DNA from: Candidatus Peribacteraceae bacterium
GTDB lineage: Bacteria; Patescibacteriota; Gracilibacteria; Peribacterales; Peribacteraceae
Direction of reading: 5' to 3'
Assembly (NCBI GenBank): GCA_028703835.1
Contig: JAQVMB010000001.1
Span: 15,455-79,454 of the forward strand
DNA length: 64,000 nucleotides
Shown here: positions 3,128-57,047 of the stretch, one piece after another
How the letters are laid out: each line of letters opens with the position of its first letter
Numbering within the stretch: the first letter of the stretch is position 1
The notes under the pieces: generated by a model
The model's input: only the letters and a program-made list of their open reading frames with translations
Databases searched by the model: none
What the model was told of the DNA's origin: nothing
Translations under genes and position numbers: made by a program

Positions 3128-3583
3128 ATGCCCACCAAGAAACGTTTCACCGACGACAGCTACCGCAAGGAACCCTGGTTCCGTGCGCTCTGCTCAGCCT
3201 TCCTCTCCTGCAAGAATGAAGAAGAGATGGGCAGCCTCTTGCGGGATATCGGCACCCTCTCCGAATTGCAATCATGGGGAGAGCGCCTGGAGGTGGCAAA
3301 GCTCCTCGTGCAGGGGTGGAGCTATCGGGAAGTGGCGCGGAGGACGGGAGCGAGCACCACCACGGTTACCCGCGTTGCGCGGTTCATCGAGAATGGGGAG
3401 GGAGGATATCGCAAAATCCTCCACGCCCATCGGCACCACCGCACACAAACAACCGTTAAAACCAGAGACAATACAAACAACATCAATACAAGTTCAGCCC
3501 TTACAGAAAACAAAAAGTCTGAACAAATTTCTATCCTTCATAAGTATCTGCACCGGAAGCAGTCCCCTTCTTCCCATGAGTGA
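3128..3583 (+). CDS. TrpR / YerC-YecD family helix-turn-helix protein
   Basis: The sequence from the ATG at 3128 (WFRALCSAFLSC..EEEMGSLLRDIGTLSELQSWGERLEVAKLLVQGWSYREVARRTGASTTTVTRVARFIENG) resembles the Trp-repressor-like family. Overlaps the ribD start by 8 nt. Confidence 0.7.
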   Translation: MPTKKRFTDDSYRKEPWFRALCSAFLSCKNEEEMGSLLRDIGTLSELQSWGERLEVAKLLVQGWSYREVARRTGASTTTVTRVARFIENGEGGYRKILHAHRHHRTQTTVKTRDNTNNINTSSALTENKKSEQISILHKYLHRKQSPSSHE

Positions 3584-5096
3584 TGAAGCAGTCCATCACC
3601 GGTGGATGCAGGAATGTCTTCGTATCGCGGGAGAGGCAAGAAAGAATGTAGGAAATGGTGCTATGGCAGGGGCTGTACTCGTTCATGAGAACAAAATAAT
3701 TGCACAAGGAGTTCATCGTGGATTTGGGCAGGTGCATGCGGAGCGGGATTTGCTGCTCAGCTTCGGCGAGGAGATCCCTTCCGGTGCCATCCTGTACGTC
3801 AATCTCGAGCCGTGCTGCCATCAGGGAAAAACGCCGCCGTGCACGGACATCATCCTGGAGCGGGGAGTGAAGCGGGTGTGTTTCGGCATGCGGGATCCGG
3901 ATTCGCGTGTGTCGGGGAAAGGGATTGAGGTCTTGCGGTCGGCGGGTGTCGAAGTCATCGGGCCGACGGCGCGTGCGTCCTGTGAGCGTTTCAACAGGGG
4001 ATTCGTCTCCGTGCGGACGAAGGGGAGGCCGTGGGTGACGCTGAAGAAGGCGATGACGAAGGACGGACGGATCGCAAACGAAGACGGCTCGACATTGAAG
4101 ATTACGAGCGAGGAGCAGGACTGCTGGGCGCATACTTTTCTCCGTTCGCGCCACGATGCCATTCTCGTCGGCGCGGAAACGGTGGTGCGGGATGATCCGA
4201 AGCTTGATGTGAGGCGGGCATCAGCCCCCTTCCCCCAAGCTCTTCCCCCCGCCGTTCCCTCATCCCCTGACCCCTTCCCCCACGGGGGGAAGGGGAACAC
4301 GGAAGAATGGCCTGATCCCTATTCGAAGATTCCCGTCCATGCCTCCGTCCTGCACCATGCGCGGAAAATGAGAAAGAACCCTACGCCGGCGGAACTGAAG
4401 CTCTGGGAGGAATTACGTGATAACAAATTGGGATGCTGGTTCCGCAGGCAACATCCCATCGGCTGTTACATCCTGGATTTCTACTGTAATGACTTTCGCC
4501 TGGGCATCGAGATTGACGGCTCCATCCATGATGATCCGGAGCAACGAAAGCAGGACGAGGAGAGGACGGCAGCGCTTGAGGAGATCAAGGATGTGACGTT
4601 GCTGCGCTTTTCGAACGATCAGGTACTTCAGGATCTCCCCGCCGTTCTCCAAACAATAAAAGAACAATTAACAAAAGCCCCTCCCCTTATGGGGGAGGGG
4701 ATGGGGGTGAGGGAAAAAGAGGGACGAGCAGGGCCGGAGGTAACAACACACAATACCTATCAACCTTGGCGCATCATCCTCGATCCTAGTCTACGTATCC
4801 CGTTGGATGCACAGGTTGTCACGGACGAAGCCCGTACGGAAACGATCATCATCACGGACGCGTCGCGCGCGGGAAGCGAAACGGCGGAGCTCTTACGAGG
4901 GAGGGGAGTGCGCGTCTTCGGCGTCCCGGCGAGCGGCGGACGCTTCGACCTGCCGTCCCTCTGGCGCGTCCTCACGACGCCGACGGAGGATTTTCACGGT
5001 CTCACGAGCATCCTGGTGGAAGGAGGCGCGCGGACATGGCAGATATGTATGGACGCAGGAGTCGTGGATGAAGAGATCATGCTTATCGGTTCCTGA
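3576..5096 (+). CDS. ribD: Riboflavin biosynthesis protein RibD (deaminase/reductase), interrupted in-frame by a DUF559 module; C-terminus shorter than canonical
   Basis: Deaminase motifs HAERD and PCCHQGKTPPC. Reductase motifs GRPWVTLKKAMTKDGRIA, ILVGAETVVRDDPKLDVR ... PWRIILDPSLRIP ... ILVEGGA. About 183 extra codons in the middle. Ends soon after the EGG motif. Confidence 0.8.
   Translation: MSDEAVHHRWMQECLRIAGEARKNVGNGAMAGAVLVHENKIIAQGVHRGFGQVHAERDLLLSFGEEIPSGAILYVNLEPCCHQGKTPPCTDIILERGVKRVCFGMRDPDSRVSGKGIEVLRSAGVEVIGPTARASCERFNRGFVSVRTKGRPWVTLKKAMTKDGRIANEDGSTLKITSEEQDCWAHTFLRSRHDAILVGAETVVRDDPKLDVRRASAPFPQALPPAVPSSPDPFPHGGKGNTEEWPDPYSKIPVHASVLHHARKMRKNPTPAELKLWEELRDNKLGCWFRRQHPIGCYILDFYCNDFRLGIEIDGSIHDDPEQRKQDEERTAALEEIKDVTLLRFSNDQVLQDLPAVLQTIKEQLTKAPPLMGEGMGVREKEGRAGPEVTTHNTYQPWRIILDPSLRIPLDAQVVTDEARTETIIITDASRAGSETAELLRGRGVRVFGVPASGGRFDLPSLWRVLTTPTEDFHGLTSILVEGGARTWQICMDAGVVDEEIMLIGS
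4215..4763 (+). mobile_element. Hairpin-ended DUF559 (Vsr-like endonuclease) element inserted in-frame in ribD
   Basis: DUF559 core NPTPAELKLWEELR..FRRQHPIGCYILDFYC..LGIEIDGSIHD..RT..L.....LLRFSN. Local GC drop. Flanking hairpins at 4271-4295 and 4678-4700. The same ends recur at 32231-32347 and 36654-36787. Confidence 0.6.
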
Positions 5097-9453: not shown

Positions 9454-9484
9454 CTTCTTTCTTTCCAGGGCGGAAAGAAAGAAG
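9454..9484 (+). terminator. 13-bp stem hairpin just after the nrdJ stop
   Basis: CTTCTTTCTTTCC-agggc-GGAAAGAAAGAAG read directly. No T-run follows. Confidence 0.4.
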
Positions 9485-10692: not shown

Positions 10693-10696
10693 GATG

Positions 10697-10739
10697 GAGG
10701 AAACCGAGGAAGCCGAGGAGACCGAAGAGACCGAGGAAC
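10697..10739. repeat. Left arm of a GAGGAAWCC 9-mer word array (5 units)
   Basis: GAGGAAACC GAGGAAGCC GAGGAGACC GAAGAGACC GAGGAAC. An 18-nt block is exactly complementary to 11229-11267. Confidence 0.8.
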
Positions 10740-10869
10740 TATATACGAAGCGTTCTGCATGGGTATAGAACGTTTTCCGGCTGAATCTAAAGCCACGATT
10801 ATTGTCACAACACTTTGTCACATTTACTTGGATATCACACGAAAATATACGAAACAATACTGTACGTTC

Positions 10870-11226
10870 ATGCATCAACGTCCCCATGAGAAACTTGTTG
10901 TATGGCGAGAGGCGCACGCGCTCACTCTCTTGCTCTATCGCCTGACAGGCACATTTCCGCAAGAAGAACGTTTCGGTCTGGTATCACAGATGCGCCGTTC
11001 CAGTGCCAGTGTTCCGACGAATATTGCCGAAGGAAACGCAAAGAAATCCAATAAGGAAAGGCATCAGTTCTTCGAGCGATCATTGGCTTCACTGGAGGAA
11101 CTGCATTATCAGTGTCGACTTTCTCGGGATCTTGGTTACTTGTCTCAGGAGTATTTCGAACGTTTGGATGATCACATGCAACGTGTGAGTTACCTGCTCA
11201 CAAGGCTGAAAGTGAGTATTTCCTGA
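10870..11226 (+). CDS. Four-helix-bundle protein (23S rRNA intervening-sequence protein family)
   Basis: EKLVVWREAHALTLLLYRLTGTFPQEERFGLVSQMRRSSASVPTNIAEGNAK...ELHYQCRLSRDLGYL is typical of this family. The gene is AT-rich and on the opposite strand to its neighbours. Confidence 0.8.
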   Translation: MHQRPHEKLVVWREAHALTLLLYRLTGTFPQEERFGLVSQMRRSSASVPTNIAEGNAKKSNKERHQFFERSLASLEELHYQCRLSRDLGYLSQEYFERLDDHMQRVSYLLTRLKVSIS

Positions 11227-11228
11227 TC

Positions 11229-11267
11229 GTCGGCTTCCTCGGTCTCGTCGGTCTCTTCGGTCTCCTC
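11229..11267. repeat. Right (complementary) arm of the 9-mer word array
   Basis: GTCGGCTTC CTCGGTCTC GTCGGTCTC TTCGGTCTC CTC. Overlaps the ychF stop codon. Confidence 0.8.
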
Positions 11268-16860: not shown

Positions 16861-16915
16861 GGGAGTATCGTACCATTATAGCACGGATTTCCGCTTTTGC
16901 TGAGGGGGTTTTTGT

Positions 16916-17002
16916 GAGGATTCCGACGAAGCCGTGGAAGCCGGGGGCCTCTTCGAGCCACTCTTCGGTTTCCTCGGATTCTTCGGTTTCCTCGGTTTCT
17001 TC
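16916..17002. repeat. Imperfect palindrome built from GAGGAAWCC / GGWTTCCTC words
   Basis: GAGGATTCCGACGAAGCCGTGGAAGCC ... CTCTTCGGTTTCCTCGGATTCTTCGGTTTCCTCGGTTTCTTC. Lies between divergent genes. Confidence 0.8.
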
Positions 17003-17052
17003 TCTCCGATCCTCCTTCCGTCTCCAACCGCCGCGTCCTATCCTTTTCCCGC

Positions 17053-18216
17053 ATGGCTTGGAGCGCCCTCTTCCACCACCGATCCCTGCGCGCCACGATG
17101 CGCGGCGCCGCCTCGTACCTCTTCGGCCGGAGGGAGCGCCGTCGCGTCGAGATGATGCGCCTGTCCTTTCGCCTGCGCCTGATGGTGCTGCTTTTTTCGC
17201 GGCGGCTCGTCCGCTTGCCGGATCTCCCTCGCGCGCGGGTCTGGGCGGACAGGGAGGCGTTCCCGCGCATCCGCAAGCTCCTCCGCGGCGCCCGTCACAC
17301 GATCATCATCCAGATGTTCATCTGGAAGGACGACCGGCTGGGAAGGGAGATGGCCGCCGCGCTCCTTGCCGCCGCGGACCGCGGGGTGAAGGTGTTCATC
17401 AGCAAGGAAGCCGTGGGTGATTTCTTCGAGACGAACGGCGATTTCCTCGCCACCCGTGACCGCGACGACGAGCCCGTCTGGCGGCGGTTCTGGCGCCATC
17501 CCAACATTCTCGTTTCCCACGCCGTGCAACGGGACCATGCGAAGGTGTACGTCATTGATGACCGGATCCTGCTGCTTACCGGCATGAACATCGCCGACGA
17601 GTACCACGATCGCTGGCACGATTATCTGGTCGAGTTGCGGGGGGAGCGGTACGTGCAGCAGTACCTCGCGCGCGGGGACATTGACGGCCGGACCGGCGGG
17701 ATTCGCATGGTGATGAACACGGAAGGCCACAAGGACATCCGGCCCGCCGTTATGGCATTGCTGCGCGGGGCGGAGCGGAGCATCGTCGTGGAACACTGCT
17801 ATCTCTCGGATCCCGCCGTGCTGCAGGCGCTGGTCAACCGCAGCAGGGAGGGCGTTTTTGTCACGGTCATCATCCCGTCCGTCGTCGATGTGCACTATTA
17901 CAGCAACATGCAGTCCGTGGCTTTTCTCCTGGCGAAAGGGTCGCCCCGGCACCTGCGCGTGTTCCTGTACCCCGGCATGTTCCATGCCAAGATCCTGCTC
18001 GCGGACAGGACGAAGGCGTTCCTGGGGTCCGCCAACCTCATCACGTCCTCCCTCGATGAGATGGGCGAAGTGAACGTGCTTATCGGGGGACGGATGAACC
18101 GTGCCGTCGCCACGTTGCGCATGGTCTTGCGGGCGGATTTGTTCCGGTGCCGCCCCCTCCGGTCGCCTCCCCATCTGGGTTGGCTCATGCGGCTGCTGGC
18201 GTGGATGCGTCTGTGA
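17053..18216 (+). CDS. Phospholipase D / cardiolipin-synthase-like protein (two HKD motifs)
   Basis: HAKVYVIDD and FHAKILLADRTKAFLGSANL. Confidence 0.8.
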   Translation: MAWSALFHHRSLRATMRGAASYLFGRRERRRVEMMRLSFRLRLMVLLFSRRLVRLPDLPRARVWADREAFPRIRKLLRGARHTIIIQMFIWKDDRLGREMAAALLAAADRGVKVFISKEAVGDFFETNGDFLATRDRDDEPVWRRFWRHPNILVSHAVQRDHAKVYVIDDRILLLTGMNIADEYHDRWHDYLVELRGERYVQQYLARGDIDGRTGGIRMVMNTEGHKDIRPAVMALLRGAERSIVVEHCYLSDPAVLQALVNRSREGVFVTVIIPSVVDVHYYSNMQSVAFLLAKGSPRHLRVFLYPGMFHAKILLADRTKAFLGSANLITSSLDEMGEVNVLIGGRMNRAVATLRMVLRADLFRCRPLRSPPHLGWLMRLLAWMRL

Positions 18217-18376
18217 GGAATCCGAGGAATCCAACGAAACCGAGGAAACCGAAGAAGGCTACAGGTGTTCGGTTCATGCTTTTGAAGGAGCGCTTTGTCC
18301 CTTTGTTCATGAAAATTTGTCATGGCAATGAACGTCCCTCGGATTCTTCGGATGCGTCGGTTTCTTCGGTTTCCTC
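18215..18376. repeat. 9-mer word palindrome with an ~80-nt spacer, overlapping both convergent stop codons
   Basis: GAGGAATCCGAGGAATCCAACGAAACCGAGGAAACCGAAGAAGG ... CCCTCGGATTCTTCGGATGCGTCGGTTTCTTCGGTTTCCTC. Confidence 0.8.
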
Positions 18377-32230: not shown

Positions 32231-32347
32231 CCCTCATCCCCCTGTCCCCCTTCCCCCGATGGGGGAAGGGGGAACGAGGATATTGTTGATCGGAGTGCCC
32301 TGTTTGTTGCCCCCTCTCCCGTGGGAGAGGGGTGCGGGGGTGAGGGT
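32231..32347 (+). mobile_element. Miniature cargo-less copy of the DUF559-element ends
   Basis: CCCTCATCCCCCTGTCCCCCTTCCCCCgatGGGGGAAGGGGGAAC ... CCCCTCTCCcgtgGGAGAGGGGTGCGGGGGTGAGGG aligns with both ends of the ribD insert. Confidence 0.6.
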
Positions 32348-36653: not shown

Positions 36654-36787
36654 CCCCCATCCTCCTGTCCTCCTTCCCCCGATGGGGGCAGGAGGGACGA
36701 AGCCGTTCATGTATTGAGCTGTTTCAGTGATTCTGCCTCTCCTCGCAGGGGGAGGGTGCCCCGAGCGCGTCGAAGGGCGGGTGGGGG
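36654..36787 (+). mobile_element. Second miniature copy of the DUF559-element ends (more diverged)
   Basis: CCCCCATCCTCCTGTCCTCCTTCCCCCgatGGGGGCAGGAGGGACGAAG ... CTGCCTCTCCTCGCAGGGGGAGGG...GGGTGGGGG. Confidence 0.5.
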
Positions 36788-36845: not shown

Positions 36846-37106
36846 ATGTCTCCCGACGCCCCGCCACCCCCGGAGAAAGAAACCAAAGCCGACTGGAAAG
36901 CCGCCTGGCTCGCGCTGCAGCTGGCCTGGGACCTGGGGTGGATCATCGCGCTTCCGGCCGCCGCTTTCGGCTTCGGCGGGGCCTATTTGGACAAATACCT
37001 CGGTACCTCACCGCTTTTCCTCCTCCTGGGCTTCGCCCTAGCCATCACGCTGTCGTATCTGGGTGTCCGGCGGAAGTTGAAGGCAATAATGAAGAAAAGG
37101 TTTTGA
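36846..37106 (+). CDS. AtpZ/AtpI-like small membrane protein
   Basis: Two TM helices (WIIALPAAAFGFGGAYLD; LFLLLGFALAITLSYLG), directly upstream of atpB. Confidence 0.6.
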   Translation: MSPDAPPPPEKETKADWKAAWLALQLAWDLGWIIALPAAAFGFGGAYLDKYLGTSPLFLLLGFALAITLSYLGVRRKLKAIMKKRF

Positions 37107-37107
37107 C

Positions 37108-37195
37108 GGAGGATTCCGAAGAGACCGAGGAATCCGAGGATGTTTTGCTGGTATCCTCGGACTCCTTGGCTTCGTCGGCTTCGTCGGATTCTTCC
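37108..37195. repeat. 9-mer word palindrome between the atpZ-like gene and atpB
   Basis: GGAGGATTCCGAAGAGACCGAGGAATCCGAGGAT-gttttgctggt-ATCCTCGGACTCCTTGGCTTCGTCGGCTTCGTCGGATTCTTCC. Confidence 0.85.
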
Positions 37196-37243
37196 CATAT
37201 TTCCCATTTTCAATTTTCCATTTTCCATTAAAATCCTCCCGCT

Positions 37244-38047
37244 ATGGCTGCGATTGAAGCCCCAACACTGGCCTCCGAAACGATCGCCCATCTCGGGTCG
37301 TTCGAGATCCGCAACACGCTCATCATGGCGTGGCTGGCCATGCTCGTGCTCTTCGGCGTCGGCTTCGCCACGCGTCGGACGGGCTACAAAGACGTGCCCG
37401 GCCGCTTCCAGGCGCTCATGGAGATGATCGTGGAGGGGTTCTTCAACTTCTGGGATTCCATCGTGGGTGACCGCGCGCAGACGCGCCGGTTCTTCCCGCT
37501 CGTCACCACCATCTTCATCTTCCTCGCCGTGGCGAACTGGATGGGCATTTTCCCGGGCGTGGGCAGCATCACCGTCGAGGGGATGCACAACGGGCACCTG
37601 ATCCCCATGCCCATCTTCCGCTCCATGAACGCGGACGTGAACATGACGCTCGCGGTCGCCCTCATCTCCGTGGTCATGACGCAGGTCTTCGGCATCGCGG
37701 CGCTGGGCATCCTTCCCTACGCGGGCAAGTTCTTCGTGGCCCCGTGGCGCGATCCCATCGGCAGTTTCATCGGCATCCTGGAATTGATCGCGGAATTCGC
37801 CAAAGTCATTTCCTTCACCTTCCGTCTCTTCGGCAACATTTTCGCGGGTGAAGTGCTCCTGGTCGTCATCTCCTTCCTCATGCCGTACGCCGCCCCGATT
37901 CCTTTCCTGGGATTGGAAATCTTTGTCGGATTCATCCAGGCATTGGTGTTTTCATTACTTACACTCGTTTTCGTCAAGATGGCGACAGCGGCGCATGGGG
38001 GGCACGAAGGAGAGGGGCACGGGAGCCATGCTGCGGCGCATGCCTGA
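37244..38047 (+). CDS. atpB: Fo ATP synthase a subunit, with a His/Gly-rich C-terminal tail
   Basis: Conserved FTFRLFGNIFAGEVLL (essential Arg) and polytopic membrane topology. Tail is AAHGGHEGEGHGSHAAAHA. Confidence 0.9.
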   Translation: MAAIEAPTLASETIAHLGSFEIRNTLIMAWLAMLVLFGVGFATRRTGYKDVPGRFQALMEMIVEGFFNFWDSIVGDRAQTRRFFPLVTTIFIFLAVANWMGIFPGVGSITVEGMHNGHLIPMPIFRSMNADVNMTLAVALISVVMTQVFGIAALGILPYAGKFFVAPWRDPIGSFIGILELIAEFAKVISFTFRLFGNIFAGEVLLVVISFLMPYAAPIPFLGLEIFVGFIQALVFSLLTLVFVKMATAAHGGHEGEGHGSHAAAHA

Positions 38048-38103: not shown

Positions 38104-38120
38104 CATTGCACATACAAACA

Positions 38121-40601
38121 ATGCACAAGATCAATGTTCGTCTCGGCATAACCTTGTTGTTGCTCCTGTCCGGCACGGTCATCATCCTGCGGTACGGTTC
38201 CAATGTCAGCCTGAGGGCATGCGATCCGGGTGACTCCGAAACGTGGACGGAGTGCGATGTGCCTTGGTGCGGCCAGGACGGCGAATGCCACGACGGTTGC
38301 ACCGAGGACGATGACTGCACGTACGCGGGAGAATGGTGCACCAGGGTCGGTTCGTGCGTATCGAATTGTAATTCGGACGATGAATGCCCTCTCGGAACAA
38401 TATGCAGTGCACCTGATTGTATTGCAGATCCTTGCGGCGACGGTTCCTGCGACAGCGGGGAGGGATGCGCCGCCGACTGCGCCACCGAACTGTTCTGCGA
38501 CGATCTGGCGGACAACGACCAGGACGCGAGCATGGACTGCGACGACTCCGATTGCGCCGAGGACCCCGCCTGCATCTGCGGCAACGGCCAGATCGACGAG
38601 GGTGAGAACTGCCATACTTGTGAAGCTGATGCCGGCTGTACTTCACCGGACGTCTGTCTGGAATCCTCCGAGGGCGCCGGTGACTGGTCTTGCACTGCTT
38701 GCGGCAACGGCCAGGTCGATGAGGGTGAGGATTGCGCCAACTGCTCCGCCGATGCCGGGTGCGACGAGGGGGAATCCTGCGTTGATATCGCGAACGAGCA
38801 AACCTGCGTCGATACCTGCACCATCCTCACCTGCGGCGCCTGTGAATCGTGCAGTGAAGGAGTTTGTCACACGGATTGTACGGGGAGCGAAGTGTGCGAT
38901 GAGAATACCAATAGTTGTACCCTCTGCGGCAACAGCCAGATGGATGAAGGCGAAAACTGCGAAACCTGTCCCGCCGATGTTGGTTGTGCAGGTAACGAAA
39001 CTTGCGATACGGGGATATGCGTCAGTAACTGCTCTTCCACGTGTGCTGCCGACGAGACTTGTGCATACTCGAATGATACTTGGATCTGCGTCAGCAACTG
39101 CGCAGGCGGGGCAGGCTGTGCCTCTGACGAGACTTGCACGGACAGCGAGGGCACTTGGACCTGCATCAGTAACTGCGCAGGCGGGGCCGGCTGTGATGAA
39201 TGCTCCACCTGCGGTTATGACGCAGTCGAAGGGTGGATATGCGATTCCAGCTGTCAGGACAATGAGATCTGCGCTCAAAATAACAACACTTTTTCCTGCA
39301 CCATCTGCGGCAACGGCCAGATCGACGAGGGTGAGAACTGCCATACTTGTGAAGCTGATGCCGGCTGTACTTCACCGGACGTCTGTCTGGAATCCTCCGA
39401 GGGCGCCGGTGACTGGTCCTGCACTGCTTGCGGCAACGGCCAGGTCGATGAGGGTGAGGATTGCGCCAACTGCTCCGCCGATGCCGGGTGCGACGAGGGG
39501 GAAACTTGCACGGACGATGGCGCGGGGGATTACAGCTGCGTCTCGGATCCTTTCTGCGGCGACGGCATCGTCAATGCCGAAGAATCATGCGATGACGGCG
39601 ATACGGACACGAGCGACGGTTGCTCGGCAACGTGTACCGTGGAAACGGGATGGGCATGTGCCGGAAGTTCGCCGAGTGTCTGTTACACGACGTGCGGTGA
39701 CGGATTCATGATGGGTGGGGAAGAGTGCGATGACGGTGATGCGGCGAACGGCAACGGTTGTTCGGCCACCTGTACGGTGGAAGCAGGCTGGTCCTGCACC
39801 GACACTTCACCCAGCGCCTGTTCCACCGGCTGCGGTGATTCGATTACCGCCGGCAACGAAGAATGTGACGACGGGAACCAGACGGATGGCGACGGGTGCT
39901 CCGCCGCTTGCGACCGGGAGGAGTGCGGGGACGGCGCCGTCAACAACGGCGGAACCGAGACATGTGATGATGGGAACGTGACGGCGTCCGACGGATGCTC
40001 TTCGATGTGCGCCATCGAAACGGGGTACGCCTGCTCGGGAACACCCAGCAGATGCTTCGTTTCTGTTCCTGCTTCTTCTTCCTCTTCTTCGTCGGCGCGC
40101 GAACAGAGCGCAGGGGGCGGAAGAGGCGGGAGCGGCGGCACGAACGCGCAGACCATCGGCGGGGCGGGGGAGAGTGCGGTCCGCGGCCGCCAGGAACAGT
40201 TGCCATCCGGCGCAAGCGGAACGTCATCCGCCTCGAGTGTCCCGGGTGTCACGGTTCCCGTCTCCGGACCGAACCCATGGCTTCTCCCGCCCGTCCGCGA
40301 AACCGTGAGCGTGCGCGAACTGCGGGAAAAAGTGGGGACGGGCATCCACGCGGCCGCTTCCGCGAACACCGACGTGACGCGCGGCGAAGCGGTGGCGGCG
40401 GTGCTGGGGCGTTACGGCTTCGATGTGCCTGCCGCCGATGACCGCGCCCTGGCCGGCGTGGCACGTTCGCTCGGCATCCTCCGCGGCTATGACGGCAAGG
40501 TCCTGGCCCTGGACCGTCCCGTGTCCCCGAGAGAGCTCTCGACGCTGATGCTCCGTTCGCGCGTGGCGGTGCGCAGGGTGGAGCGGCGGCAGGGGCGGTA
40601 A
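38121..40601 (+). CDS. Cys-rich repeat surface protein A (N-terminal anchor/signal, C-terminal SLH-like module)
   Basis: MHKINVRLGITLLLLLSGTVIIL, many CGNGQ(I/V)DEGE(N/D)C and CDDG..... repeats, and the C-terminal GILRGYDGKVLALDRPVSPRE. Confidence 0.8.
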   Translation: MHKINVRLGITLLLLLSGTVIILRYGSNVSLRACDPGDSETWTECDVPWCGQDGECHDGCTEDDDCTYAGEWCTRVGSCVSNCNSDDECPLGTICSAPDCIADPCGDGSCDSGEGCAADCATELFCDDLADNDQDASMDCDDSDCAEDPACICGNGQIDEGENCHTCEADAGCTSPDVCLESSEGAGDWSCTACGNGQVDEGEDCANCSADAGCDEGESCVDIANEQTCVDTCTILTCGACESCSEGVCHTDCTGSEVCDENTNSCTLCGNSQMDEGENCETCPADVGCAGNETCDTGICVSNCSSTCAADETCAYSNDTWICVSNCAGGAGCASDETCTDSEGTWTCISNCAGGAGCDECSTCGYDAVEGWICDSSCQDNEICAQNNNTFSCTICGNGQIDEGENCHTCEADAGCTSPDVCLESSEGAGDWSCTACGNGQVDEGEDCANCSADAGCDEGETCTDDGAGDYSCVSDPFCGDGIVNAEESCDDGDTDTSDGCSATCTVETGWACAGSSPSVCYTTCGDGFMMGGEECDDGDAANGNGCSATCTVEAGWSCTDTSPSACSTGCGDSITAGNEECDDGNQTDGDGCSAACDREECGDGAVNNGGTETCDDGNVTASDGCSSMCAIETGYACSGTPSRCFVSVPASSSSSSSAREQSAGGGRGGSGGTNAQTIGGAGESAVRGRQEQLPSGASGTSSASSVPGVTVPVSGPNPWLLPPVRETVSVRELREKVGTGIHAAASANTDVTRGEAVAAVLGRYGFDVPAADDRALAGVARSLGILRGYDGKVLALDRPVSPRELSTLMLRSRVAVRRVERRQGR

Positions 40602-40701
40602 AGATGCGCAGCAAGCGCTCCAGCTTTCCGTATGCGAGCGGCGGACGCTATTCGTCTCCCATTCCGTTTCGGGAATCGAGGGTTTGGTCGACTTCAAAAC
40701 A

Positions 40702-40804
40702 GGTGTTCTCCCTGCTGACGCTGGTCTTCGTAAAAATGGCCACGGCGGCGCATGGAGGGCACGAAGGAGAGGGACACGGGAGCCATGCTGCGGCGCATGC
40801 CTGA
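40702..40804 (+). pseudogene. Displaced duplicate of the last 33 codons of atpB
   Basis: Encodes VFSLLTLVFVKMATAAHGGHEGEGHGSHAAAHA*, identical in protein to atpB 37946-38047, but 13 codons differ synonymously. Similarity decays upstream of 40702. Confidence 0.7.
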
Positions 40805-40832
40805 ACGAGCAAACGGAAGCCAAAAATCAAAG

Positions 40833-40861
40833 TCGATACTGTGCCGAAAAAGTGGTATAAT
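40833..40861 (+). promoter_or_regulatory. Duplicated sigma-70 promoter for Cys-rich gene B
   Basis: TCGATA, 17-nt spacer, TGgTATAAT. Homologous to 38075-38103. Confidence 0.55.
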
Positions 40862-40878
40862 AATTGCACATACAAACA

Positions 40879-42438
40879 ATGCCCAAAATGAGCATTCGCA
40901 TCGGCTTCCTGCTGCTGTTGCTCCTGTCCGGCACGGTCATTATCCTGCGGTACAGTACCAATCTCAGCCTGAGGGCATGCGATCCGGGTGACGAAAGCAC
41001 ATGGGCGGAATGCGATGTGCCTTGGTGTGGCCAGGACGGTGAATGCCACGACGGTTGCACCGAGGATGATGACTGCACGTATGTGGGAGAATGGTGCGCA
41101 CAGAACGGCGGCTGCTATTCCTCCTGTACCACGGACGACGAATGTCCCCTTGAAACCATTTGCTCGGATTCGGCCTGCATTGAAGATCCTTGCGGCGACG
41201 GTTCCTGCGGCAGCGGGGAGGAATGCGCCGCCGACTGCAGTTCGGAAACGTACTGTGATGACGGCGTGGACAACGACCAGGACGTGTACACGGACTGCGA
41301 CGACTCCGATTGCGAGGGGGAGCCTGCCTGCGATCCCTGCGGCGACGGTTCCTGCGACCCCTTGGAACAATGCGCCGCCGACTGCAGTTCGGAAACGCAC
41401 TGTGATGACGGCGTGGACAACGACGAAGATACCGGCATCGATTGCGACGATTTGGACTGCGAAGCGAACCTTGTTTGCATGTGCGGTAACGGCTCCTGCG
41501 ATGACGGCGAGGTCTGTGCCGCCGACTGTCCTGATGAAGCGTACTGCGAGGACGGCGTGGACAATGACGAAGACGGGGATACGGACTGCGACGATTCCGG
41601 TTGTGCAGCCGATTCCGCCTGTATTCCGGATTGCGGCAATGGCAGTCTCGATGACGTCGAGGAATGCGATGACGGGAATACCTCGGATTATGATGGCTGT
41701 TCGGCGGATTGCATCGTCGAGGAGGGATACGAATGCACCGTCGTGGGCGAAGCATGCAATCTCATTTGCAGCAACGGTTTGATCGATGATGGGGAGGCCT
41801 GTGATGACGGCGACGCGGATGCCGGTGATGGCTGTTCGGCAGCTTGCGCCATTGAGGACGGCTACGAGTGCACGGGTGAACCGAGCGTCTGTACGGAAGA
41901 GGAGGAAGAAATTTCCTCTTCCTCGTCATCGTCGTCTTCGGCCTCTTCCGTCCTTCGTCCGCAGAGCATGGGCGGGGGCAGGGGCGGAGCCGGCGGCACG
42001 AATGCGCAGACCATCGGCGGGGCGGGGGAGAGTGCCGTTCGCGGCCGACAGGAACAGATGCAATCCGCCTCAAGCGCGCAACGCATCACGGTTCCCGTCT
42101 CCGAGCCGAACCCATGGCTTCTCCCGCCCGTCCGCGAAACCGTGAGCGTGCGCGAACTGCGGGAAAAAATGGGGACGGGCATCCACGCGGCCGCCCCCTC
42201 CGACGTTCAAGTGTCGCGTGGCGAAGCGGTGGCGGCGGTGCTGGACCGGTACGGCTTCGACATGCCGGCCGCCGATGACCGCGCCCTGGCCGGCATGGCG
42301 CGTTCGCTCGGCATCCTCCGCGGCTATGACGGCAAGGTTTTGGCTCTGGATCGTCCCGTGTCCCCGAGCGAGCTCTTAACGATGATGCTTCGTTCGCGCG
42401 TGGCGGTGCGCAGGGGAGAGCGGCGGCAGGGGCGGTGA
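40879..42438 (+). CDS. Cys-rich repeat surface protein B (paralogue of A)
   Basis: N-terminal ~70 aa and C-terminal ~160 aa are colinear with protein A. The central Cys/Asp-rich repeats differ (DCSSETxCDDGVDNDxD units). Confidence 0.8.
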   Translation: MPKMSIRIGFLLLLLLSGTVIILRYSTNLSLRACDPGDESTWAECDVPWCGQDGECHDGCTEDDDCTYVGEWCAQNGGCYSSCTTDDECPLETICSDSACIEDPCGDGSCGSGEECAADCSSETYCDDGVDNDQDVYTDCDDSDCEGEPACDPCGDGSCDPLEQCAADCSSETHCDDGVDNDEDTGIDCDDLDCEANLVCMCGNGSCDDGEVCAADCPDEAYCEDGVDNDEDGDTDCDDSGCAADSACIPDCGNGSLDDVEECDDGNTSDYDGCSADCIVEEGYECTVVGEACNLICSNGLIDDGEACDDGDADAGDGCSAACAIEDGYECTGEPSVCTEEEEEISSSSSSSSSASSVLRPQSMGGGRGGAGGTNAQTIGGAGESAVRGRQEQMQSASSAQRITVPVSEPNPWLLPPVRETVSVRELREKMGTGIHAAAPSDVQVSRGEAVAAVLDRYGFDMPAADDRALAGMARSLGILRGYDGKVLALDRPVSPSELLTMMLRSRVAVRRGERRQGR

Positions 42439-42524
42439 GTGAGCGCTGCGACCGTCGGAGACGGGCGGCTATTGTGTTGCACGTTTCCCGTTCGGTACAC
42501 TCGGACCCGTCTTTCCCTTCCTTC

Positions 42525-43181
42525 ATGATGTTTCGTCACCGTCTTCCCCTGCTCTTGCTCTGTCTCGGGCTCCTCTCCGCGTGCGACCGCCTCGGGGAGA
42601 ACTCCTGGCGCGCAGCCGTGTCGTCCTGCGGCAACAAGCTGGTCGAAGACGGGGAGCAGTGCGACGACGGCAACACGGCCCCAGGAGACGGATGCGACCC
42701 CGCCTGCATCACGGAGTACCGCTGCACTTGCGTGGGGCAGCCGAGCAAGTGTTCCTGCACGTGCGGTGACGGCGTCGTGCAGAAAGGGGAGCAGTGCGAT
42801 GATGCCAATGTCAACGAAGAAGACGGTTGCGATCTGTTCTGCCGCGTGCGGACGGGATGGGCCTGCCGGGGGGCGCCGAGCGCGTGCCATTTGAAACGTT
42901 GCGGCGACCAGTTGGTGGATCCTGGGGAGAAGTGCGATGACGGGAATGATATGTCCGGCGACGGGTGTTCGGGCATATGCGCGACGGAGAAGGGGTGGGC
43001 CTGCGCCGGAGAGCCGAGCGTGTGCCATCCCGTGCTGTGCGGCGACGGCATCAGGGACGGTGCGGAAAAATGCGATGACGGGAACGGGGAGGGAGGGGAC
43101 GGGTGCGGCATGAATTGCACGGTGGAGAAGGGGTGGACATGCGCCGGTTCGCCCAGCGCGTGCACGCAGAAAGGGAAATAA
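42525..43181 (+). CDS. Cys-rich repeat lipoprotein C
   Basis: Lipobox-like LLLCLGLLSAC, then five CGDG....GE.CDDGN..(G/S)GDGC repeats. Confidence 0.75.
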   Translation: MMFRHRLPLLLLCLGLLSACDRLGENSWRAAVSSCGNKLVEDGEQCDDGNTAPGDGCDPACITEYRCTCVGQPSKCSCTCGDGVVQKGEQCDDANVNEEDGCDLFCRVRTGWACRGAPSACHLKRCGDQLVDPGEKCDDGNDMSGDGCSGICATEKGWACAGEPSVCHPVLCGDGIRDGAEKCDDGNGEGGDGCGMNCTVEKGWTCAGSPSACTQKGK

Positions 43182-43351: not shown

Positions 43352-43380
43352 TTGATTCCTTTTGCGCATGTCTTTACAAT
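43352..43380 (+). promoter_or_regulatory. Candidate sigma-70 promoter for atpEFHAG
   Basis: TTGATT, 17-nt spacer, TACAAT, about 40 nt upstream of the atpE ATG. Confidence 0.45.
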
Positions 43381-43420
43381 CCGCGCGCTTTTTCTTCCCT
43401 TACCCTTTTCCCCGTTTCGT

Positions 43421-43690
43421 ATGCCCGCGACCGAAGTTGCCCAAGCAGCAGGAGCCGTCACCGGTTCCATTTTCTCGGATAAGAACACCCTCGTAGCCGC
43501 CACCATGGCGCTCGGCTCCGCCGTTCCCGCCTTCTCCATCGGTTGGATCGCAAGCAAGGCCATGGAGGCCATCGGCCGCAATCCGGAAGCGGGGGCCAAG
43601 ATCCAGACGTCCCTCGTTCTCTCCGTCGCCTTCGCCGAGGCCATCGCCATCTACGCGCTCGTCGTCTCGCTCATCATCAAGTTCGTCTGA
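43421..43690 (+). CDS. atpE: Fo ATP synthase c subunit
   Basis: Two-helix hairpin protein with GRNPEAG loop and the carboxylate helix SVAFAEAIAIYALVV. Confidence 0.9.
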   Translation: MPATEVAQAAGAVTGSIFSDKNTLVAATMALGSAVPAFSIGWIASKAMEAIGRNPEAGAKIQTSLVLSVAFAEAIAIYALVVSLIIKFV

Positions 43691-48250: not shown

Positions 48251-50800
<2,550 letters not shown>

Positions 50801-50801
50801 C

Positions 50802-50894
50802 GAGGGGAATCCAAGGAAGCCAAAGAATCCGAGGAATCCAAGGAATTGAGCCTATGCATTCCTTGGCTGCGTTTGGGTCCTTGGATCCTTTTGG
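50802..50894. repeat. 9-mer word palindrome immediately after the gyrB stop
   Basis: GAGGGGAATCCAAGGAAGCCAAAGAATCCGAGGAATCCAAGGAAT-tgagcctatgc-ATTCCTTGGCTGCGTTTGGGTCCTTGGATCC. Confidence 0.8.
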
Positions 50895-53604: not shown

Positions 53605-54894
53605 TTATTCATCCAATACCTCTGATGATTTTCCTCCGCCGATCATCAGAATGTATGGCAACAATAATGGATCTGAAAATCTATACTTATATGATCTCTG
53701 CTTGCCCACTTTTTCTAATATCTTTCCTCTGTCTTCACAAAATTCATTGATATGTTTTTGGAAGGTAGAAATCTTAATATTCTGCCGTTTTAATATTCGA
53801 CTAAGATGAGGAACAACATCTGATAAATAAAAATAGCCGAGATCATCTCGCTCTTTTGTGGAAGCAATTGCACAAGCGAGAAGAACGTCATCATAAAGAG
53901 CATCCTTATGTGCACTATGAATTGCTTTGTAGTATCTGTCTCTAATTGATTGTTCCGATTCATTTACAGCTTTGTGAAAAGAATCGAGTACATCTTTTCG
54001 AAATATTTTTCTGGAACCATGTGAAAGGGCTTCCCGTGTTGAATGCAATCCAATTAGATGTGTGTAATGGGGCATCCCCTGAGATGTGCGAACGATTAGC
54101 GAGGCGGCTGATTCGTCAAAACCTGTTCCTAGCGCATTTGAAGCCTTGCTCAATATTTCTCGCAGTTCCCTTTGATTCATTCTTGGGAGTTGTATTTGAG
54201 TAAGACATCTAACTATTGATGCATGATCTTTAACCAAATCATTTATTGTGTCCGCAACCCCCACAAGGATGATCGTGGTATCAATTCCATAATCAGATAA
54301 TGCTTTAATTAAATCTGTATAATTTTTTCTCACTGCGTGGTCTGCACGATCAAATTCATCAAAAATAAAAACTGATCCTTTCAGCCCCCTAAGCATGCGC
54401 CTCACATCATCAATGGAAAGCTTATCTCCTGAGTTAATGCCCATTTTCTTCTTTAATGAAATTAAATTCTTCTCCTGACCGATATCAAATCCAATAATAT
54501 CGTCGGCAACCAGCATTTCATCAAACGCCTTTTTCCATAAATCACTAAAAGAATCATCTGCGGTAGCATTCACTCGTACAACTAAACGACGATCCTGCCC
54601 TGATAATTCAGTTAGATTTAAAAGAATTTTCGCCATATTCGCTAGAGATGTTTTCCCAACTCCCCTCTCACCAAATAGAACTATATGGAATCCAGTTTGT
54701 CTAACCGAATCAGTAATACGAGTAAGCTGATCCCAGCGTCCCGCAAAGAACTCTCTTCCATTAATTGGAGTTCGTGGTTTAAAAATTGACCCAGCCTTTA
54801 TATGCAGTGCCAGGGACTCATCATCACTTAACTGAATCTCGCTCATGCTGTGCATAGTATCATAAGTTCTCCGACTATACAAAATAGAAGTCAT
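53605..54894 (-). CDS. AAA+ ATPase (archaeal-ATPase / ORC-Cdc6-like NTPase), passenger gene
   Basis: F.GRWDQL...IVLFGERGVGKTSLA (Walker A) and SVFIFDEFDR (Walker B). The C-terminal ~130 aa may be a winged helix. About 34% GC. Confidence 0.75.
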   Translation of the reverse strand: MTSILYSRRTYDTMHSMSEIQLSDDESLALHIKAGSIFKPRTPINGREFFAGRWDQLTRITDSVRQTGFHIVLFGERGVGKTSLANMAKILLNLTELSGQDRRLVVRVNATADDSFSDLWKKAFDEMLVADDIIGFDIGQEKNLISLKKKMGINSGDKLSIDDVRRMLRGLKGSVFIFDEFDRADHAVRKNYTDLIKALSDYGIDTTIILVGVADTINDLVKDHASIVRCLTQIQLPRMNQRELREILSKASNALGTGFDESAASLIVRTSQGMPHYTHLIGLHSTREALSHGSRKIFRKDVLDSFHKAVNESEQSIRDRYYKAIHSAHKDALYDDVLLACAIASTKERDDLGYFYLSDVVPHLSRILKRQNIKISTFQKHINEFCEDRGKILEKVGKQRSYKYRFSDPLLLPYILMIGGGKSSEVLDE

Positions 54895-54974
54895 ACTAAA
54901 GAACAACCTTCTCTAACTTATTGACATAGATGTATAACTATACTCTATTGAAAGAAACTCATTATCCGACTACT

Positions 54975-55163
54975 ATGAAATTCATGGCAAAGAAGAGAAT
55001 TACAACGACGGTTCTGGGCAAACAAGACAGCAAATTTGTTTATCAATTGCTAGTAACTTCCTCTGGCGAAAATACCTCCAGACTAGCAAGGTTAGCAAAG
55101 GAAGTAATACAATCAGAACATGGTGCTAATGCGCCCCTTTCAACCAACAGATCCAAGAGGTGA
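54975..55163 (+). CDS. Small ORF upstream of and overlapping the GNAT gene (possible RHH-type antitoxin)
   Basis: KKRITTTVLGKQDSKFVYQLLVTSSGENTSRLARLAKEVI has a strand-helix-helix-like pattern. This is weak and the start is uncertain. Confidence 0.3.
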   Translation: MKFMAKKRITTTVLGKQDSKFVYQLLVTSSGENTSRLARLAKEVIQSEHGANAPLSTNRSKR

Positions 55164-55728
55164 TTCTTTATTAAGAACAGAAGTGCGGACAGATGAGCAC
55201 AAGGGTCTGCTAGATTTTTATCTAAATGAGGCAAAAAACTGTGAGGAGAATCTAACATCTTTTACATACGATATTGTTTCAGACGATGGAAATTTCTTAG
55301 GTTTTTTCTGTGTCTCAAATAGCCTATTACTTTTAGATGAAAAAGAAATCATGACTGAATTTAAGCGAAAAAAGAACGTTTCATTTGCACCGCCAGCGAC
55401 GCTTCTTGGAAAGCTTTATATATGTAATTGTAATCGTGGAACTGGGATTGGCTCAGAGGTTATCTTATATATAGCAAAAGAAATTTGTTTCAAATCGAAA
55501 TCAGCCTCTCGCTTTATTATTATTGATATTAATGCTCGTAATCCTAATGCCGTTAATTTCTATACAAAAAGAGGTTGGCTACACCCTCGGACATATGCCA
55601 GAAAAATGTTTTTTGACCTCTTGAGATTTAAAATATTTTTGAAAGCTTATAAGGAGCAATGTCGGAACTCATCAGCCGCAGAAATATTGCGATTATTTGC
55701 AATATATCTCCAAGAAGAACAGAACTAG
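55120..55728 (+). CDS. GNAT-fold acetyltransferase-like protein, passenger gene
   Basis: Acetyl-CoA motif A R-G-T-G-I-G (LYICNCNRGTGIGSEVILY) and motif B NPNAVNFYTKRGW. Confidence 0.6.
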   Translation: MVLMRPFQPTDPRGDSLLRTEVRTDEHKGLLDFYLNEAKNCEENLTSFTYDIVSDDGNFLGFFCVSNSLLLLDEKEIMTEFKRKKNVSFAPPATLLGKLYICNCNRGTGIGSEVILYIAKEICFKSKSASRFIIIDINARNPNAVNFYTKRGWLHPRTYARKMFFDLLRFKIFLKAYKEQCRNSSAAEILRLFAIYLQEEQN

Positions 55729-55770
55729 TTTTCTTGCTGTTGAAAACCAAGAGTATAATACAAATTATGG

Positions 55771-56676
55771 CTAATCAAAGTACCGACAAGCACCGATTCT
55801 TTGAGATACTAAGACGTGCGGCAACCCCACACGCGAAAGTAAAAAATGAAAAAGATGCTGATCGGCAGAATGAGCGTAATTATAACGAAAAGAAAATTCT
55901 CCAAGATACAAAGGAAGATACTTTGCAGAAATAACATGGTAGGTTCCATCCAGTGACCGCTTCAACTGCGACCAGAACCCCTCAATGGTGTTCGTGTACG
56001 CGCCGCCTTTCCTATACTGCTTCTCCTTGTGCTTCACCGTCGCATGGCCGAGGCCTTCGACGTTGGTGATGCTCTTGTAGGCTCGAAGCTCGTCCGTAAG
56101 GAGGACTGACCCCTTGGCGATGTTGTTTCGGATGGGGTGCAGGAGGCTCTCTTCCGTCGTGTCCTTCACAACTTCCGCGTGAACCTTGCCCTTTCGCTGA
56201 ACCGATCCAAACACGATGGATTTGTTCTCCATCTTGTGGCGCATGTTCCTCTTCCCGCCAATCCACGTTTCATCCGCTTCCACTTCGCCAGACTGTAGGG
56301 CGGGTTCCTCGTTCATCATCTTCCGTATCTCCTTCGCCATTCTCCACGCGGTTTTGTAGGTCACGCCCACCTGTCGTTCAATCTCCTTCGCCGCAACTCC
56401 GTTCCTCGATTGAGACATGAGGAAGATCGCGTGAAACCACTTCACCAAGTCGGTGGAAGACTTCTCGAAGATCGTTCCCGCCTTCGGGCTGATCTGAGAC
56501 TTTCCGCAGTAGCAGACGTAGTGCGCTGTTTTCTTCTGGCGGTAATACTGTCCGATCAGACCACACTTCGGACATGCGCTCTTGCTGTGGAATTGCTGGA
56601 AAAGATGTTCCAAACAAGCCGCGTCGTCGGGGAAGAGCTTATGGAATTGGGAGATGGTGAACTTCGGAAGCTTCAT
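55771..56676 (-). CDS. IS1595-family DDE transposase
   Basis: N-terminal zinc ribbon (CPKCG...YVCYCG), an HTH region, and the DDE region ending in TNTIEGFWSQLKR. Starts about 40 nt inside the right IR. Confidence 0.9.
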   Translation of the reverse strand: MKLPKFTISQFHKLFPDDAACLEHLFQQFHSKSACPKCGLIGQYYRQKKTAHYVCYCGKSQISPKAGTIFEKSSTDLVKWFHAIFLMSQSRNGVAAKEIERQVGVTYKTAWRMAKEIRKMMNEEPALQSGEVEADETWIGGKRNMRHKMENKSIVFGSVQRKGKVHAEVVKDTTEESLLHPIRNNIAKGSVLLTDELRAYKSITNVEGLGHATVKHKEKQYRKGGAYTNTIEGFWSQLKRSLDGTYHVISAKYLPLYLGEFSFRYNYAHSADQHLFHFLLSRVGLPHVLVSQRIGACRYFD

Positions 56677-56930: not shown

Positions 56931-56970
56931 ACCAATCAAAAAAACCTACGCGTAGGTTCTTTTGATTGGT
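56931..56970. terminator. 40-nt near-perfect palindrome abutting the tRNA-His 3-prime end
   Basis: ACCAATCAAAAAAACCTACG|CGTAGGTTCTTTTGATTGGT, one mismatch. Confidence 0.45.
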
Positions 56971-57047
56971 GGGGCGAGCGATGGGATTCGAACCCACGAC
57001 CCTCTGGACCACAACCAGATGCTCTAACCAACTGAGCTACGCTCGCC
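56970..57047 (-). tRNA. tRNA-His (anticodon GTG) with encoded G-1 and CCA
   Basis: The reverse complement GGCGAGCGTAGCTCAGTTGGTTAGAGCATCTGGTTGTGGTCCAGAGGGTCGTGGGTTCGAATCCCATCGCTCGCCCCA folds as a cloverleaf. Anticodon loop is TTGTGGT. The extra 5-prime G pairs with discriminator C. Confidence 0.93.

Follow-up and report, generated by a model that had tools for sequence, protein, structure and literature searches.

The DNA analysed here is a stretch of 64,000 nucleotides from a Candidatus Peribacteraceae bacterium (the window), and it contains members of a family of hairpin-ended repeats at three places. One member lies inside ribD and carries a nuclease domain of the DUF559 type, the single DUF559 of the window and the sole protein-coding family member seen there. 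The other two, here called mini1 and mini2, are short and free of open reading frames (ORFs). Mini1 is situated between the convergent stops of a gene for a 488-547-aa protein and a gene for an SLH-domain protein; mini2 is situated in the atp operon, between atpC and the atpQ/'gene 1' ORF. Coordinates are collected in Table 1.

Table 1. Positions of the repeat-family members and of the short coding repeats in the window
Feature	Position	Strand	Description
Host gene ribD	3576..5096	+	deaminase + RibD_C reductase; ~173-codon insert between LDVR and YQPWRIILDP
Left unit of ribD copy	4257..4303	+	translated as ...PSSPDPFPHGGKGNT
DUF559 nuclease domain	4338..4676	+	EDxHD / Vsr-like PD-(D/E)XK; in frame with ribD; catalytic D..E.DG..HD present
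Right unit of ribD copy	4677..4713	+	translated as ...APPLMGEGMGVRE
Mini1 left unit	32231..32279	+	terminal motif CCCTCATCCCC (32231-32241), 12-bp C/G hairpin (32245-32273), tail AACGAGG
Mini1 spacer	32280..32309	+	30 nt, without ORF; not significantly similar to the ribD element's interior
Mini1 right unit	32310..32346	+	hairpin CCCCCTCTCC-cgtg-GGAGAGGGG (32310-32333), terminal motif GGGGGTGAGGG (32336-32346)
Mini2 left unit	36654..36700	+	CCCCCATCCTCC, hairpin 36669-36695; directly 3' of atpC stop codon
Mini2 right unit	36733..36787	+	degraded: imperfect hairpin, ~22 nt extra, terminal GGGTGGGGG
GAGGAAACCGAGGAA-type repeats	10693-10746, 11218-11267, 16912-17011, 18211-18376, 37105-37203, 48625-48665, 50467-50520, 50800-50844		

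Mini1 is a doublet of 116 nt (32231-32346; the preliminary description of this DNA had put the end at 32347), made of a left unit, a 30-nt spacer and an inverted right unit. The left unit opens with CCCTCATCCCC, followed after 3 nt by the hairpin arms CCCCCTTCCCC/GGGGAAGGGGG; the right unit presents the arms CCCCCTCTCC/GGAGAGGGG, 2-3 nt and then GGGGGTGAGGG. The same plan holds for the family in general: in left units the terminal C-tract motif CCCTCATCCCC precedes a CnTTCn/GnAAGn hairpin, and in right units, their inverted counterparts, a CnTCTCn/GnAGAGn hairpin precedes GGGGGTGAGGG. The ends had been described as two hairpins; hairpins they are, but that account was incomplete, as the ends are also true terminal inverted repeats, CCCTCATCCCC and GGGGGTGAGGG of mini1 being complementary at 10 of 11 positions and extended by TTTT/AAA. 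Folded as a single strand, mini1 forms an outer stem, in which the terminal motifs pair, and two inner hairpins; the energy, -37.2 kcal/mol (z = -6.05), was equalled by none of 200 shuffles. The notion that all six reading frames are open was tried and rejected: mini1 is open in four of six frames and mini2 in two of six, and only the hairpin arms are intrinsically stop-free.

That the ribD insert and the two intergenic elements share their ends was the core of the preliminary description, and the hairpin ends are indeed found where it placed them, at the 4257, 32231 and 36654 loci. In global alignments the left unit of the ribD copy matches that of mini1 at 40/49 positions and that of mini2 at 37/47, and the right units of the ribD copy and mini1 match at 29/37. 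Mini1 lacks the nuclease ORF, as had been claimed, with the 30-nt spacer (about 30 nt in the original estimate) in its place. Mini2 (36654-36787) is, as reported, a more diverged third copy: its left unit agrees with that of mini1 at 41/49 positions, and its right unit is degraded and aligns poorly. The degraded right-end variant, with its GGGTGGGGG end, recurs in the metagenome contigs. Within the window, the terminal 11-mer in its exact form, CCCTCAYCCCC, is restricted to 4257+, 4703-, 32231+ and 32336-, the two ends of the ribD copy and the two of mini1; if one mismatch is tolerated, the number of matches is 15, where 3.45 would be expected. Exact matches to CCTTCCCCCNNNGGGGG are confined to the ribD copy, mini1 and mini2, and a whole-window scan for homopyrimidine/homopurine hairpins returned only these three and, at 9455, a site that is unrelated. 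Four sub-motifs keep their order, polarity and spacing. Judged by exact termini and unit identities, mini1 and the degraded mini2 are ORF-less doublets of one hairpin-ended repeat family, the same that forms the ends of the DUF559 insert, and the claim of cargo-less copies holds good to that extent.

The preliminary description was right that a DUF559 insert lies within ribD and needs the correction that the gene reads through it: the frame is uninterrupted, and DUF559 is no separate gene. The order along RibD (P0080 in the homologue search) is deaminase, first part of RibD_C, a Pro-rich segment (the left unit), DUF559, a Gly-rich segment (the right unit) and the remainder of RibD_C. DUF559 is the only domain detected in the insert; there is no Hint domain, the flanks (RRASAPF... 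and ...THNTYQPW) show no intein splice-junction residues, and no Rfam intron matches at the site. No protein splicing is to be expected of the insert, because it lacks the Hint domain and splice-junction residues that inteins have. An AlphaFold2 model of RibD with its insert, built from an 8-row alignment, reached a pLDDT of 54 and is unusable. A second RibD, P0081 (L004/L005), is 53% identical to that of the window and syntenic, and carries DUF559 at the very same position, with the same end architecture, within an otherwise lower-GC gene. Occupation of the site is patchy: among the 120 RibD homologues in the matches listed, 118 are without the insert, many of them closer to the RibD of the window than P0081, and the filled sites are those of the window and L004.

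By the names given to the closest homologues of its RibD and AtpC, the organism is a CPR bacterium of the Peregrinibacteria/Peribacteria type. The source sample is a landfill metagenome, and one public run holds the sequence, as Logan contigs. These contigs end precisely within the left hairpins of both mini1 and mini2, and the depth summed over the left unit is ~100 against ~8 for the genome. At least 10 further contigs, at 7-13x depth, carry the left unit with unrelated flanks, their assignment to the same genome being by depth only. The multi-copy character proposed for the family is supported by these same-depth contigs, read with the proviso that depth alone assigns the extra copies to the source organism. 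One of these contigs, 2189 nt long, bears another doublet, in whose 16-nt spacer an interior stretch of the ribD element (4341-4352) is matched at 12/12 nt, a match that 0/500 shuffles equalled. The spacers of mini1 and mini2 hold no relics of the DUF559 interior beyond chance (257 and 272 of 500 shuffles, respectively, are as good). Both had been called deletion derivatives. That label is not supported for mini1 and mini2, because their spacers bear no trace of the DUF559 interior, the 12 nt being kept only by the other mini just described.

The closest relative found, L206, is syntenic and has an AtpC 81% identical to that of the window. Its atpC-atpQ spacer is just 12 nt, without mini2; an ordinary hairpin-plus-T-run terminator stands at the mini1 site, without mini1; and its RibD (P0088), encoded on the same contig as the atp genes, has no insert. 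Since all three sites are empty in L206, the ribD copy, mini1 and mini2 are present in one and absent from another of these related lineages, rather than sitting at identical sites in all relatives, a pattern that the preliminary description had named as telling against mobility. No C/G hairpin units were found in ~60 kb of relatives' DNA. The mini1 and mini2 doublets have been gained or lost since the split from the nearest sequenced relative.

The window has other irregularities of its own. Its atp operon is split by ~5.1 kb (38106-43181) between atpB (37244-38047) and atpE (43352-43690), genes that lie 200 nt apart in L206; the splitting stretch contains three genes for DUF4215 Cys-rich repeat proteins, whose internal duplications are nearly identical (for example 38573-38780 vs 39302-39509, 99%). 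Three copies of a 65-nt repeat (57356-57828), each with two hairpins (GACACC-TTCG-GGTGTC; GGCAACAGGCG-GGAA-CGCCTGTTGC), stand beside tRNA-His (56970-57046) and make up a second small repeat family, unrelated to the DUF559 units. A low-GC island (54000-56000, 38% vs ~61% for the window) adjoins the same tRNA gene and was possibly acquired horizontally. Many gene ends, on both strands, carry 9-nt coding repeats of the GAGGAAACCGAGGAA type, which give acidic Glu/Thr/Ser tails (Table 1).

The union of hairpin units and DUF559 extends far beyond one genome. A search with a 7-sequence alignment (an 18-sequence alignment was too diverse) supplied 80 DUF559 loci, taken from one-genome-per-species contigs of Bacteroidota, several CPR groups, Chloroflexi, Proteobacteria and Cyanobacteria. 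At each locus the best inverted repeat bracketing the DUF559 gene was scored, with windows displaced by 1.5-2.2 kb at the same loci as controls. Scores of at least 16 were obtained at 49/80 loci vs 0/263 displaced windows, and scores of at least 20 at 37/80; 31/80 are without a clear bracketing repeat. The common architecture of the bracket is a terminal CTCACCCC/ACCCC, 2-4 nt and a C-rich/G-rich hairpin; an extreme is L002, a JGI contig, with a 62-nt terminal inverted repeat that is 61/62 complementary and has CCCCTCACCCCC ends. The elements are 420-740 bp long and consist of the nuclease and two ends, nothing else. A check for flanking duplications, suggested earlier, gave a negative answer: no target-site duplications accompany 28 DUF559 elements or the three window copies, and mini1 and mini2, first described as MITE-like, are not classical MITEs for this reason.

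The association can also be read from the side of the repeats. The left-unit pattern matches at least 120 metagenome stretches, of which 80 loci were examined (508 kb, 88 units). Within these 508 kb, 7/8 DUF559 genes lie 18-109 nt from a unit, and ORF-less doublets are common, measuring 73-120 nt and having spacers of 8-12 nt. Extra solo or doublet units occur near 8/28 DUF559 elements (reversed-sequence control, 0), and many DUF559 elements have no further unit within 6 kb. Beside none of the copies was another candidate enzyme seen. The preliminary description had allowed that the end motifs might prove to be generic repeats, common and indifferent to DUF559; common they are, yet positionally linked to it, by bracketing (49/80 vs 0/263) as by proximity (7/8). 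The linkage of DUF559 with hairpin units is general across bacterial phyla, and it is both statistical and physical.

Residence within host reading frames is likewise recurrent. At 13/80 loci the DUF559 frame continues in both directions for 150 codons or more without a stop, where ~1.6 loci would be expected by chance; at 13 further loci of the 80 it does so on one side only. According to Pfam, the hosts interrupted in frame are MetH, LeuRS, ValRS, MnmE, RibE and Type ISP/MmeI-like enzymes (DNA methylases/RM), with at least 13 elements among them; one MetH gene has two inserts, RibE inserts are found in two CPR genomes (L001, L006), and LeuRS has two sites. Site 1 of LeuRS is occupied in a Saccharibacteria genome (L048) and in one of the Bacteroidota (L064); at site 2, L030 has a full element and L064, exactly there, an 87-nt ORF-less doublet. 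Palindromic units also lie in frame within ORFs of L064, L046 and L006, and 18/67 evaluable left units of the metagenome loci are contained in long open frames. The element ends translate as Pro/Gly linkers of the SPPTPEGG.../...PPSGAGGA type. Because the arms are homopyrimidine/homopurine, they can contain no stop codons, as loops and spacers can, and are translated as Pro-rich and Gly-rich segments; full and mini copies can therefore be maintained not only in intergenic DNA but also, in frame, within essential genes. For annotators this is a caution, as 'fusions' of DUF559 to MetH, LeuRS, RibD and the like are insertions and not domain architectures. It would also account for the very common Pro/Gly-rich 'PSPxGEG' insertions and spurious ORFs of bacterial and CPR proteomes.

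As a separate observation, DUF559 cassettes are strikingly frequent in or beside restriction-modification and DNA methyltransferase genes, both between hsdM and hsdS and inside Type ISP/MmeI-like enzymes (L002 2096-2830; L046, L052, L025, L029, L022, L032, L050, L210).

DUF559 is among the commonest nuclease domains of 'unknown function' in bacteria, and we know of no strand-transfer or transposase activity for a DUF559 nuclease of ~110 aa. The domain in the window matches Pfam at E = 1e-27 and has all the invariant residues, DF...E.DG..H.D...RF.N, with the motifs IEIDGSIHD and DF conserved. The DUF559 profile matches PDB 3hrl (E = 2e-31) and 3r3p, the catalytic domain of I-Bth0305I, a homing endonuclease from a group I intron (E = 2.5e-5). 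EDxHD/Vsr-like nucleases are recognised as a family of homing endonucleases that reside in introns and inteins (PMC2677866, PMC3239194, PMC3384342, PMC9403480). The opinion that DUF559 had never been tied to a mobile element was in consequence half right: it overlooked that the related EDxHD/Vsr-like enzymes are established homing endonucleases (PMC3239194, PMC2677866, PMC9403480). The Caulobacter DUF559 protein VsrA, by contrast, has been interpreted as a Vsr-type mismatch-repair nuclease and not a mobility factor (PMC12907096). In the literature searched, what comes nearest to the elements seen here is an inverted-repeat-based screen in which 'DUF559 domain-containing protein' was enriched 14-fold among the predicted targets of programmed inversion (PMC9881135).

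The position of the nuclease gene relative to the units is not constant. DUF559 lies inside one doublet in the window, L004 and L126 (L-gene-R), between two doublets in L090 and L158 ([L R]-gene-[L R]), and after a doublet in L164 and L210 ([L R]-gene); in L120, L037 and L059 the units are inside out. This variation disfavours a simple transposon bounded by terminal inverted repeats and resembles REPtrons; it fits a relation of the REP/RAYT kind, or homing into repeats, as well as it fits an autonomous element with derivatives. The ends themselves are asymmetric, the left terminus reading CAT and the right CAC, in the window copies (4257/4703, 32231/32336), in L004, L126 and L064, and in 12/13 metagenome doublets. 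If the ends pair, a T.G mismatch results, which is the type of substrate that Vsr acts on, and the mismatch of paired ends could be the cleavage signal; the asymmetry may also be a mere mark of polarity, since other DUF559 lineages have symmetric ends.

Two of these loci have peculiarities. In L210 a doublet and DUF559 are inserted where an MmeI/Eco57I-like gene ends (3'), and 35 nt of this host-gene end are perfectly repeated, in direct orientation, on either side of the insertion (2786-2820 and 3404-3438); no other long flanking duplication was seen, and this one is a hint of insertion through repair. In L164 (1907-2520) four tandem 177-nt repeats, each with a complete doublet, lie in an open frame of 637 codons with DUF559 directly after it, so that the doublet is here amplified within a protein-coding tandem repeat.

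One way to understand these facts together, ranked first and given about even credence here, is that the doublets are non-autonomous partners, REPIN- or MITE-like, of a nuclease-only element, the DUF559 protein (EDxHD, Vsr-like) being supplied in trans. The nuclease would find its target in the terminal motif, the extruded hairpins or both, and cleave the DNA at that place; copying would be the work of host break repair or of replication via the repeat ends, in a homing-like manner, without DDE-type strand transfer. The missing target-site duplications would follow from this mechanism, because its copies would arise by break repair and not by DDE strand transfer. We infer that DUF559 acts on the units, and that copies are made via break repair rather than by transposase chemistry. 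The occurrence of a full and a mini copy at one LeuRS site speaks for mobilisation in trans, as do the 12/12 nt of interior kept by the third mini; the relic-free spacers of mini1 and mini2, the varied unit arrangements, the 31/80 loci without brackets and the reading of VsrA as a repair nuclease (PMC12907096) speak against it.

A second perspective, ranked next and judged possible rather than probable, reverses the roles. The doublets might be an independent REP-like repeat and DUF559 a homing endonuclease gene that targets it, cutting ORF-less units and being copied into or beside them with the repeat units as homology arms; mini1 and mini2 would then be vacant targets, not derivatives. Proven homing endonucleases in the EDxHD/Vsr-like family (PMC3239194, PMC3384342) make such a role plausible, and several features of the repeats agree with it: doublets far outnumber DUF559-bearing copies and are uniform (73-120 nt, spacers of 8-12 nt), DUF559 relics are absent from the spacers of mini1 and mini2, the position of DUF559 relative to complete doublets varies, and distant lineages have identical host sites filled (the ribD site: the window and L004; LeuRS site 1: L048 and L064). 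The spread of the doublets is left unexplained by such homing, however, with no alternative enzyme seen beside any copy, and it is hard to see why one inverted pair should so neatly bracket DUF559 in 49/80 loci or why many DUF559 elements should stand without another unit within 6 kb.

A host function for the hairpins seems improbable. The units would be selected as stabilisers of transcript ends, as attenuators of the atp operon or as protein-binding sites, and their likeness to the flanks of DUF559 would be coincidental. The location of mini1 between convergent genes, where L206 has its ordinary hairpin-plus-T-run terminator, and that of mini2 between atpC and atpQ invite this idea, and REPs are known to acquire such roles (PMC3733652). 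The scan for intrinsic terminators, however, was negative at both mini copies: no hairpin-plus-T-run was found, the hairpins being followed by the tails TAAATAA and AAAACGA and not by a U-run. Nor did a search of the window against Rfam find any family at the mini copies, its only match in the whole window being tRNA-His. The sites are empty in L206, like units lie in frame inside coding regions of other genomes, and a statistical link to DUF559 is not to be expected of a regulatory motif of the host.

Chance resemblance of low-complexity C/G tracts in a genome of 61% G+C, suggested by the compositional simplicity of the units and the poor alignment of the mini2 right unit, is effectively refuted by exact 11-mer termini and a hairpin pattern that are confined to these loci and that shuffles do not reproduce, by the conserved order, polarity and spacing of four sub-motifs, by bracketing at 49/80 loci against 0/263 controls, and by recurrence of the left unit in at least 120 metagenome stretches.

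To return to mobilisation in trans, a bolder form of it would see in DUF559 a pan-bacterial, nuclease-only selfish element: a ~110-aa DUF559/EDxHD enzyme set in hairpin repeats, translated through without splicing, that spawns ORF-less doublets and mobilises them in trans. This extension is offered tentatively. If true, it would provide a nuclease-based counterpart to the pairs of REP with RAYT and of MITE with transposase. Its use might also be practical, as the elements could serve as markers of recent gene flow and as a source of compact structure- or motif-specific nucleases. The consistent context of DUF559, in which hairpin repeats and ORF-less partners go together with in-frame insertion into housekeeping genes, gives the domain a testable role. 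The original observation was right in substance, though the phenomenon is broader than it suggested, and it put the specifics, MITE status and descent by deletion, too strongly. In the full-text literature searched, a body outside which most subscription journals lie, no description was found of DUF559 cassettes with hairpin repeats or ORF-less partners, and the family, widespread as it is, is apparently undescribed.

Several known systems offer partial parallels. Elements of the IS200/IS605 type have hairpin ends and, like the window family, make no target duplication; their hairpins are subterminal, without terminal inverted repeats, and they rely on an HUH TnpA, often with TnpB, neither of which is present here. 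Inteins resemble the DUF559 cassettes in lying in frame in conserved housekeeping genes and in carrying an endonuclease. The Rickettsia palindromic elements (Ogata et al. 2000, cited in PMC3733652) are reportedly palindromic repeats tolerated in frame in protein genes; the in-frame insertion is shared with relatives of the window family, mini1 and mini2 themselves being intergenic. They differ in that their sequence is unrelated and, as far as is known, limited to one genus, whereas the present family spans many phyla, and we know of no nuclease gene associated with them.

The EDxHD homing endonucleases (I-Bth0305I; Dassa 2009, Taylor 2011) have the nuclease fold and catalytic motif of the DUF559 found here, and show the same patchy occupation of identical sites in conserved genes. 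No intron or intein is involved here, though: the insert is retained in the mRNA and, it appears, in the protein as well. DUF559 is, moreover, flanked by hairpin inverted repeats, which exist also in ORF-less form, and it does without the large DNA-binding region of I-Bth0305I.

MITEs are small (under ~500 bp) and non-coding, with terminal inverted repeats, as mini1 is; they are multi-copy, as the window family seems to be by contig depth, and they share their ends with a protein-coding relative, as the mini copies do. The doublets here differ in lacking target-site duplications, in having in DUF559 a partner that is no known transposase, and in that each terminal repeat contains a hairpin of its own. 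The REP/REPIN-RAYT system provides a parallel in organisation: short imperfect palindromes, either single or paired as inverted doublets, scattered in many copies, for the most part 3' of genes and sometimes inside them, without target-site duplications, and with one or a few enzyme genes flanked by such units in a variable arrangement. There, however, the enzyme is an HUH tyrosine transposase and the units bear a GTAG or CGTC tag (PMC3733652); here the linked enzyme is a PD-(D/E)XK nuclease of the DUF559/EDxHD kind, neither tag occurs, the units are homopyrimidine/homopurine, and the enzyme cassette is itself inserted at many places, in frame as well. The window family resembles REP/REPIN-RAYT and MITEs most, yet departs from each in features that help to define it.
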